The position numbers and the translations under genes are program-made. Below, one piece after another: positions 19,412-21,303 of a stretch of DNA of 64,000 nt. The DNA comes from Eledone cirrhosa. Lineage: Eukaryota. The stretch covers positions 122,822,001 to 122,886,000 of the forward strand of contig OZ024741.1 in assembly GCA_964016885.1 (NCBI GenBank), written 5' to 3'. The notes beneath the pieces were generated by a model. The model was not told where the DNA came from, made no database searches, and saw only the letters and a program-made list of their open reading frames with translations. Each line of letters begins with the position of its first letter. The first letter of the stretch is position 1.

Positions 19412-19523
19412 GAAAATGTATGACCCCGACGGCAGAGCTCAAGCCGTTTCGACGGCTATTTCTGGACCAGATATAGCGCCGTCGAAACGGCTTTGAGCTC
19501 TGCCGTCGGGGTCATACATTTTC
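19412..19523. repeat. Palindrome containing the 3' half of a hammerhead motif
   Basis: Arms gaaaatgtatgaccccgacggcagagctcaagccgtttcgacggc / gccgtcgaaacggctttgagctctgccgtcggggtcatacattttc. Confidence 0.9.
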
Positions 19524-19539
19524 CTATTATCCACTCTAT

Positions 19540-20195
19540 AGTATAGTATTACTGTTGAAAATATATAATACAGTATAGTATGACTGTTGAATACACATAG
19601 AATAGCATAATATTACTATTGAATATATATAATATAGTATAGTATGACTGTTGAATACACATAGAATAGTATAATATTACTATTGAATATATATAATATA
19701 GTATAGTATGACTGTTGAATACACATAGAATAGTATAATATTACTATTGAATATATATAATATAGTATAGTATGACTGTTGAATACACATAGAATAGTAT
19801 AATATTACTATTGAATATATATAATATAGTATAGTATGACTGTTGAATACACATAGAATAGTATAATATTACTATTGAATATATATAATATAGTATAGTA
19901 TGACTGTTGAATACACATAGAATAGTATAATATTACTATTGAATATATATAATATAGTATAGTATGACTGTTGAATACACATAGAATAGTATAATATTAC
20001 TATTGAATATATATAATATAGTATAGTATGATTGTTGAATACACATAGAATAGTATAATATTACTATTGAATATATATAATATAGTATAGTATGACTGTT
20101 GAATACATATAATATAGTATAGAATTACTGTTGAAAATATATAGAATAGTATAGGATTACTGTTTAAAATATATAGTATAGTATCACTGTTGAAA
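19540..20195. repeat. 64-bp minisatellite built from two ~32-bp subunits, roughly 9-10 units
   Basis: Unit gaatatatataatatagtatagtatgactgttgaatacacatagaatagtataatattactatt recurs at 19621, 19685, etc. Confidence 0.93.
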
Positions 20196-21187
20196 ATATG
20201 TACACGAATATATAATTATATATATATATATATATATACATAATTAATTAAAAGTTGGTTAGAAGCGAAGTCAATGCAGACAGACATACAGACAGATATT
20301 ATAAGCGCGCGATGTTATAGCTATGTATCTATCTAAAAAGACAGAGTAATACAGAGAGAGGAATGTCGTATTATATATAATAAAGTACCAGTAATGTACT
20401 GAGATATTTGCTGGCCTTGTGGCAAAAGTAGAAACAATTCTACTTCTTTTTTTTTATACAACTGTAAATATCATGTTTATGTATGTATATATATACGTAT
20501 AAAGGAATGGTGTAATAAAATGTACAAATTAAACTGTCTCTTATTTATGATACTAACACTATATATATATATATATATATATATATATATATATATATAT
20601 ATATATATATATATATATATATATATATATATATATATATATATATATATACACACTATATATATATACATAGATATACATATACACAGATAACGACGTG
20701 AATGTACAAAATGGTTTTGATAATGCAAACAGCCAGTCATACAGAGACATATTATAAGGGCTCGACATTATAGCTATGTATCTATCTAAAAAAAAGACTA
20801 AGAAATAGAGAGGAATGTCGCATAACCGGAAGTGTTGACATTTGAAAATTTTAAAGAAGTGAATATTTAAATAATATCTTTAATCTTCTAACAAAATTTA
20901 CTAGACATAAATGCGCTCACTTTCTTACTTGGAAAAAGTTATATCTATGGTGCAAATTTAGTACCATTTGGTTCAGCCGTTTGGATGACCGTCAGCTTTA
21001 TATATATATATATATATATATATATATATATATATATATATATATATATATATATATATATATATATATATATATATATATATATATATATATATATATA
21101 TATATATATAACGAAGGAAATGTCGTAAGGAACCAGGTGGACCATAACGCACCAAAGTACTCAATACCTAGAGTAGTAGAGTGGGTA

Positions 21188-21303
21188 ATAGGAACGAGTA
21201 GGACCCCGACGGCTGAGCTCAAGCCGTTTCGACGGCTAATTCAGTCCAGAATTAGCCGTCGAAACGGCTTGAGCTCAGCCGTCGGGGTCCTACTCGTTCC
21301 TAT
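21188..21303. repeat. Palindrome of the same family as 19412-19523, opposite orientation
   Basis: Perfect arms around a 6-nt loop (agtcca, 21243-21248). Confidence 0.92.

Follow-up and report, generated by a model that had tools for sequence, protein, structure and literature searches.

Abundant palindromic stubs of a Penelope-like retrotransposon in Eledone cirrhosa and their probable origin as paired run-off cDNAs

Introduction

Two palindromes in a 64,000-nucleotide stretch of the Eledone cirrhosa genome (GCA_964016885.1, contig OZ024741.1, positions 122,822,001 to 122,886,000; hereafter the window) belong to a very abundant class of Penelope-like retrotransposon (PLE) stubs and are ordinary members of it. 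The stubs are short insertions of a Hydra-clade PLE into (TA)n, in which two run-off cDNAs copied from the sense, capped mRNA were probably joined head to head. The origin of head-to-head inversions and pseudo-LTRs in PLEs has been stated as open (PMC8557442; PMC11167929; PMC2377424). The original prediction for this DNA had attributed the palindromes to a cDNA that snaps back on the stem II hairpin of a hammerhead ribozyme and self-primes its second strand.

Two palindromes in the window

Positions within the element are numbered from the C of CGAAA, which is 0. The features of the two copies are as follows.

19333..19411, (TA)n target flank of copy 1
19412..19467, minus strand, tail-less arm of copy 1; 5′ end at −16, one base short of the putative start site
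19468..19527, plus strand, tailed arm of copy 1; 5′ end at about −13/−14
19528..19538, plus strand, tail remnant of copy 1, 11 nt of a 78-nt tail, by comparison with the tails of long copies
19538..20184, 64-bp minisatellite, 10.1 copies, in place of the remainder of the copy 1 tail
20999..21110, (TA)n target flank of copy 2, tail side
21110..21187, minus strand, 78-nt PLE tail of copy 2, +44 to +121, between two putative priming sites
21188..21242, minus strand, tailed arm of copy 2; 5′ end at −11
21243..21303, plus strand, tail-less arm of copy 2; starts at A21243, which is −17 and the putative main transcription start
21301..21335, (TA)n target flank of copy 2, tail-less side

Both palindromes lie where they had been predicted. 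In copy 2 the arms (21188-21242 and 21249-21303) are complementary at 55/55 positions around a centre of 6 nt, and the element runs on through its tail at 21110-21187 into (TA)n. The arms of copy 1 (19412-19467 and 19468-19523) are also complementary, but the right arm has one substitution and two small insertions; this copy is slightly decayed and belongs to another subfamily. The two are members of one family in opposite orientations, as had been proposed, with the tailed arm on the plus strand in copy 1 and on the minus strand in copy 2. In both, the tail-less arm reaches further 5′ than the tailed arm, and neither has kept the extra G described below.

The tailed arm of copy 1 holds the stem II 3′ strand, GAAA, helix III, GUC and the helix I 3′ strand, so that the 3′ half of a type-I hammerhead is indeed present and the 5′ core absent. 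In the tail-less arm of copy 2, C21260 is position 0 and the ribozyme would be expected to cut after C21283. The left GACGGC, taken earlier for the 5′ strand of stem II, is the reverse complement of the 3′ strand; the parent strand reads G-[A/C/T]-T-CGGCTA. An Rfam scan of the palindromes gave no hammerhead match and sub-threshold hairpin matches only.

It had also been argued that the symmetry arose separately in each copy, since the arms agree within copies and differ between them. The differences between the window copies are subfamily markers, found also in long parents (loci L089 and L102 versus L081 and L090), and so do not by themselves prove per-copy symmetry. The conclusion stands on other grounds, namely the junctions, which differ from copy to copy and occupy 68 distinct positions among 78 copies.

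Abundance and parent element

The stub consists of a tail-less arm joined head to head to a tailed arm and inserted in (TA)n. A search with copy 2 gave 40 scored full-length matches, and the 30 inspected had common outer ends, (TA)n flanks and differing centres. A 22-nt marker spanning arm and tail has 36,447 exact matches in the 3.0-Gb genome. Junctions were sampled from the first 100 marker matches on contig C1; one divergent copy was dropped and 11 were corrected by eye, leaving 99 copies. An inverted tail-less arm was present at the junction in 78 of these, none was found in 12, and 9 continue beyond −185. Scaling 78/99 to the marker count gives about 29,000 stubs, a rough figure from one 20-Mb stretch. 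The size range is narrow, and the outer ends are fixed at +43 and +121.

Three of 30 tail-selected copies continue upstream and expose the parent. Its core pattern has 3,506 matches in the genome, often as inverted pairs 0.2-5 kb apart. The unit is about 3.5 kb long, with tandem units 3,542 bp apart, and carries a 710-amino-acid frame whose start codon is at +214, with YRDD at 340 and a GIY-YIG domain at its C terminus (VIY..YIG at 583). The predicted PLE origin is borne out by this reading frame, which encodes a reverse transcriptase (RT) and GIY-YIG. The query itself had no Pfam match; among its 402 homologues, one scored above the Pfam RVT_1 cut-off. The traits of endonuclease-bearing (EN+) PLEs are found here: a single ORF with RT followed by GIY-YIG, pseudo-LTRs from partial tandems, an inverted 5′ copy and a one-sided tail. 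At C1:91476596-91487254 (L229-L232), four or more complete 3,542-bp units stand head to tail in an array; they belong to the subfamily that looks youngest.

The protein motifs of the parent match those of the Hydra clade. DKG is changed to DKT (DKTG at 109), the linker CxCx5C reads CNCPDRSIC at 564, and the CxxC/CxH pair surrounds the conserved E and N, with CNLC before E667 and CKH after N. Insertion is into (TA)n, as in that clade, and the N-terminal place corresponding to RWK reads RWR. The Neptune clade, which has DKG and a CX2-5CxxC linker, was ruled out by DKT and CxCx5C.

The parent hammerhead

A first search for the parent, with CTGANGA and a gap of at most 36 nt, returned 18 chance or neighbouring-family matches; the parent in fact has another core and a gap of about 58 nt. 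The expected intact parent does exist, with helices I-III and the RT and GIY-YIG frame, and its core is YUGANAA rather than CUGANGA. Loop II is about 40 nt long, helix III has 5 bp and loop III contains a palindrome. In 30 long arms, 98.6% of 510 cells pair as in a type-I hammerhead, with one two-sided change; since the motif was partly fixed by the search pattern, this is weak as a measure of covariation. Single-strand folds of the parent hammerhead were not distinctive. The core pair is U3-A8 in 47 of 71 arms and U3-G8 in 3. The remaining 21 have a C3-A8 mismatch and have spread nonetheless, which suggests that cleavage may be dispensable in that subfamily. There is a minor pile of arm ends at the putative cut site, where 6 of the 21 ends within +1 to +36 fall at +23 to +25 (p = 0.006).

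A narrow wall inside loop II

The breakpoints were predicted not to be random, and they are not: both arms stop at a narrow wall, −11 to −21, inside loop II. Among copies reaching that far, the tailed arm ends there in 57/69 and the tail-less arm in 59/60. The per-base stop rate is 0.075-0.089 at the wall and about 0.003-0.014 in other broad bins. A second, tail-selected sample (n=29) agreed, with 19 tailed ends at −11 to −21. Neither arm consistently reaches further 5′: the tailed arm does so in 38 copies, the tail-less arm in 32, and the two are equal in 8 (n=78; p = 0.55). Overlaps at the junctions are mostly 0-1 nt, and with 68 distinct junction pairs in 78 copies the inversion is made anew at each insertion. 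Within copies the arms differ by a mean of 1.2 mismatches per 19 nt, compared with 4.6 between copies, which fits one RNA or two RNAs of one master.

The junction expected from run-off was found at 1,791 loci in the genome; among 50 inspected, the commonest centre was AAATTT (16/50). Along the parent, contig depth increases about 15-fold between −21 and −7 and drops several-hundred-fold after the tail; as the reads may come from the assembly's own sample, this profile was not counted as independent. A splice acceptor at the wall (TTTAG at −20 to −16) was considered and rejected, because the arms keep the AG and share no common upstream exon.

Same-strand jumps were seen 9 times among 30 loci bearing UTR, with donor 5′ ends at −14, −16 (3), −17 (2), −20, −21 and +24, the last of these being the putative ribozyme cut site. 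They have about 0-1 nt of overlap and no homology, and some are repeated in tandem. Jumps from the wall would be the behaviour of an RT at the physical 5′ end of its RNA. Two tandem arrays are composed of the 5′ end of the element only (C2:356030065-356031890 and L223), with periods of 299 and 257 bp. Every unit of the L223 array starts at −20, as would fit an RT that jumped repeatedly on a short RNA with a cap.

In 52/52 long arms a TA-rich box starts 29-31 nt upstream of the wall, and it was read by the TATA/initiator spacing rule. It departs from TATAWAWR in most subfamilies, and the search pattern fixed it in part.

An extra G at the junctions

A targeted search gave 273 loci, and in the first 50 of them the extra bases at the centres were counted by hand. 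When the two arms both extend to A(−17), the centre is C-N-G in 26 of 35 three-base centres (25 of them C-A/T-G) and CG in 2 of 15 two-base centres; either form amounts to one extra G 5′ of each arm. The parent does not supply this base, the residue at −18 in long arms (n=52) being T in 44, C in 8 and G in none. The C-A/T-G centre is found in either orientation relative to the tail (14:9) and is shared by several subfamilies (25 loci inspected), and some loci carry the same signature at −21/−22. Unselected samples gave only six informative ends, at −17/−21/−22 with a centre insert of at least 2 nt (G 3, A 2, T 1), so that the G count rests on the targeted searches; at other positions G was found in 10/66. 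Most junctions are trimmed and have no extra G.

An extra G marks the cap at full-length 5′ junctions made by L1 (PMC11702581), and the G on each arm is best read as a copied m7G cap. From the sequences we infer that A(−17) is the main transcription start, with minor starts at −21/−22, and that the core promoter lies inside hammerhead loop II.

A second hammerhead family allows a comparison. Its wall lies 5 nt upstream of its hammerhead core, outside stem II and with no U-tract, and among 50 loci a G precedes the wall in 8 of 11 unambiguous arm ends. A sister subfamily has TATAAATA 30 nt upstream. No ORF of this family was found in the loci examined. With its G and its wall outside stem II, it indicates that the centre of the palindrome tracks a promoter-like site, not stem II.

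Formation of the stubs

According to the preferred reading, which we consider probable, transcription would start inside loop II, and the 5′ hammerhead core would be missing from the stubs because it was never in the mRNA. The PLE protein would cut (TA)n and prime at both target ends, at +43 and +121. Both cDNAs would copy the sense, capped mRNA and run off the cap, and either an RT jump or host end joining would unite their 3′ ends, usually once a few bases had been trimmed. The stubs lack the TATA-like box and are probably dead ends, like retroviral minus-strand strong-stop DNA captured twice. The double cap-like G points to a sense, capped template and to two separate cDNAs, and it would name the start site to the base.

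The earlier proposal of a snap-back has some points in its favour: the breakpoints are next to the 3′ strand of stem II, hammerhead self-similarity of 5-6 nt is used at a few junctions (L145, L050), and self-priming has been proposed before for PLE inversions (PMC3846280). However, a cDNA folded on stem II should leave a tailed arm in which the 5′ strand of stem II and the 40-nt loop are retained, and this is the case in 0/78 short inverted copies. The tailed arm should also reach at least as far as the other, and this is violated in 32/78 copies, in 11 of them by at least 20 nt. Overlaps are mostly 0-1 nt, and where 0-1 base separates the two extra G's there is no loop for a fold-back. The exact snap-back junction has no match in the genome, and a looser pattern has one, which continues into unrelated DNA and is not the predicted product, against the 1,791 loci with the run-off junction. 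Snap-back is thus exceedingly improbable. It is unlikely, though less so, that the RT stalls on a longer RNA where loop II has a U-tract or structure at its 3′ edge, the extra G being the complement of a C added to the cDNA by terminal transferase activity. The wall does sit on TTT (−18 to −20), two copies have long A/T runs at the centre (L140, L209), and AAATTT is the commonest centre; yet that centre is also what two arms ending at −21 and overlapping by AT would give. Long arms read through the spot, as the 3,506 core matches attest, G is not enriched beside arm ends elsewhere (10/66), the wall of the second family has no U-tract and lies outside the ribozyme, and TATA-like spacing is found in both families.

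The very high copy number, fixed outer ends and narrow size range might suggest that the palindrome is itself a non-autonomous unit that propagates like a MITE or a SINE and undergoes decay of its centre once inserted, and deletions at palindrome centres could account for some of the asymmetry. This is very unlikely, given 68 distinct junctions in 78 copies, one centre that recurs across subfamilies and in both orientations, long counterparts of the main short subfamilies inspected, and a parent that encodes RT-EN rather than a transposase. The ends are asymmetric: instead of the matching TIRs and fixed interior of a MITE, there is a 78-nt tail on one side and a variable centre. Target-site duplications are unreadable in (TA)n targets. 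Any fixed RNA 5′ end would produce a wall and jumps, including one made at −17 by a nuclease, through small-RNA slicing or processing, and then capped or G-tagged. A TATA-like box at −29 to −31 with a pyrimidine-A start in two families, and several starts 4-5 nt apart that each carry a G, make such an origin highly improbable.

The preferred reading, run-off of two cDNAs from capped mRNA, has to accommodate the long copies. Of 19 copies that contain a long ORF stretch, none has its start at the wall (four of the 19 are units of one array). This is contrary to a simple one-unit capped template, and another template or a seamless jump is needed. Long copies might come from a multimeric or circular template, as has been proposed for PLEs (PMC4209133), or from a seamless jump through the −17 to +23 repeat. 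Tentatively, and with rather less than even confidence, it may be suggested that a strong-stop step is the normal opening of PLE reverse transcription. The PLE protein would bind the tail near the capped 5′ end of the mRNA, both target ends would prime copying up to the cap, and a cDNA jump would then be obligatory. With its promoter inside loop II, the mRNA would be terminally redundant from −17 to +23, with a ribozyme-cut 3′ end, like a retroviral R region. Failed jumps would join the two cDNAs and yield the tens of thousands of stubs, and successful jumps or circular templates would yield pseudo-LTRs. If true, this would explain head-to-head inversions and the regeneration of pseudo-LTRs across PLEs, and transcription start sites could be read from genomes alone.

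Neighbouring repeats

Several other repeat families seem to insert in the same way as the PLE studied here. A complete type-I hammerhead-like motif of another family lies beside (TA)n at 59183-59227 (plus strand) of the window; its Rfam Hammerhead_1 score of 31.7 bits is below the gathering score of 34. Another hammerhead-bearing family is present on the minus strand at about 35322 and 36628, and in two loci (L064, L072) an arm of this family adjoins the 5′ end of an arm of the studied family in a same-sense fusion, in one case at the common CAGAAT. Yet another repeat flanked by (TA)n occupies 19045-19330 and has a minimal hammerhead-like motif, and copies of it are fused to arms of the studied family in L063, L068 and L071. 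The palindrome at 44485-44642 has outer arms of 48 nt, encloses a second, nested palindrome and is followed by (TA)n. The 964 kb of loci examined contain 70 other long head-to-head palindromes, many of them (TA)n-flanked with a one-sided extension. A SINE-like dispersed repeat has copies near the studied palindromes, at 18645-18769, 20379-20451 and 21586-21710.

Comparison with known systems

Inverted pseudo-LTRs with a one-sided tail, the Hydra clade and two-site priming are already known. In the literature searched, which held few subscription papers and did not extend to Repbase or supplements, no description was found for PLEs of a cap-bounded wall, of double-G inversion junctions or of a promoter within loop II. 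The Hydra clade comprises C-terminal EN+ PLEs with DKT, the CxCx5C linker, CxxC/CxH, (TA)n targets and a hammerhead, and molluscs are among the phyla in which it occurs; for PLEs in general, the same account describes an inverted, 5′-truncated copy and a tail on one side (PMC8557442, Craig et al. 2021). Compared with the clade as characterized there, the Eledone unit is longer (about 3.5 kb, the clade being generally <3 kb), has RWR for RWK, a tail of 78 nt instead of 30-40, and the variant core YUGANAA. A fixed wall, cap-G junctions and an excess of stubs over long copies were not found in that description.

PLE minimal hammerheads are of type I and lie in the pLTR, with a U3-A8 core variant and a palindromic loop 3 (PMC4209133, Cervera and de la Pena 2014). 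In the Eledone element, by comparison, helix III has 5 bp and a loop II of about 40 nt appears to hold the core promoter. In Adineta vaga, head-to-head PLE inversions have palindromes at the inverted junctions, and the pLTR contains TATA and Inr-like motifs (PMC3846280, Arkhipova et al. 2013). Self-priming on an antisense template was proposed there, whereas the Eledone data point to two cDNAs and a sense, capped template.

The Poseidon element PAc of the green anole has been studied in vitro: both strands are cut and extended from two internal RT start sites that bound the tail, and the targets are AT-rich (PMC11167929, Frangieh et al. 2024). The Eledone element resembles it in its two putative internal priming sites bounding the tail and in its AT-rich targets. 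The joining steps were left open in that account; in Eledone the result of joining is preserved in the genome, and both arms bear a cap-like G. L1 twin priming likewise has RT primed at both target ends, the cap marked by an extra G and a centre resolved by end joining (PMC11702581). The two L1 cDNAs cover different parts of the RNA, whereas in Eledone both cover the same 5′-terminal 60 nt, hence the palindrome.

The junctions point to a PLE RT that jumps from an RNA 5′ end without homology, and their proposed origin would explain a large class of repeats that could be misfiled as MITEs or as microRNA-like hairpins. Retroviral minus-strand strong-stop DNA is primed near the RNA 5′ end by a tRNA, runs off at the cap and jumps from the end. 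The Eledone stub, in contrast, would be primed by target DNA and integrated as such, with no LTR machinery.
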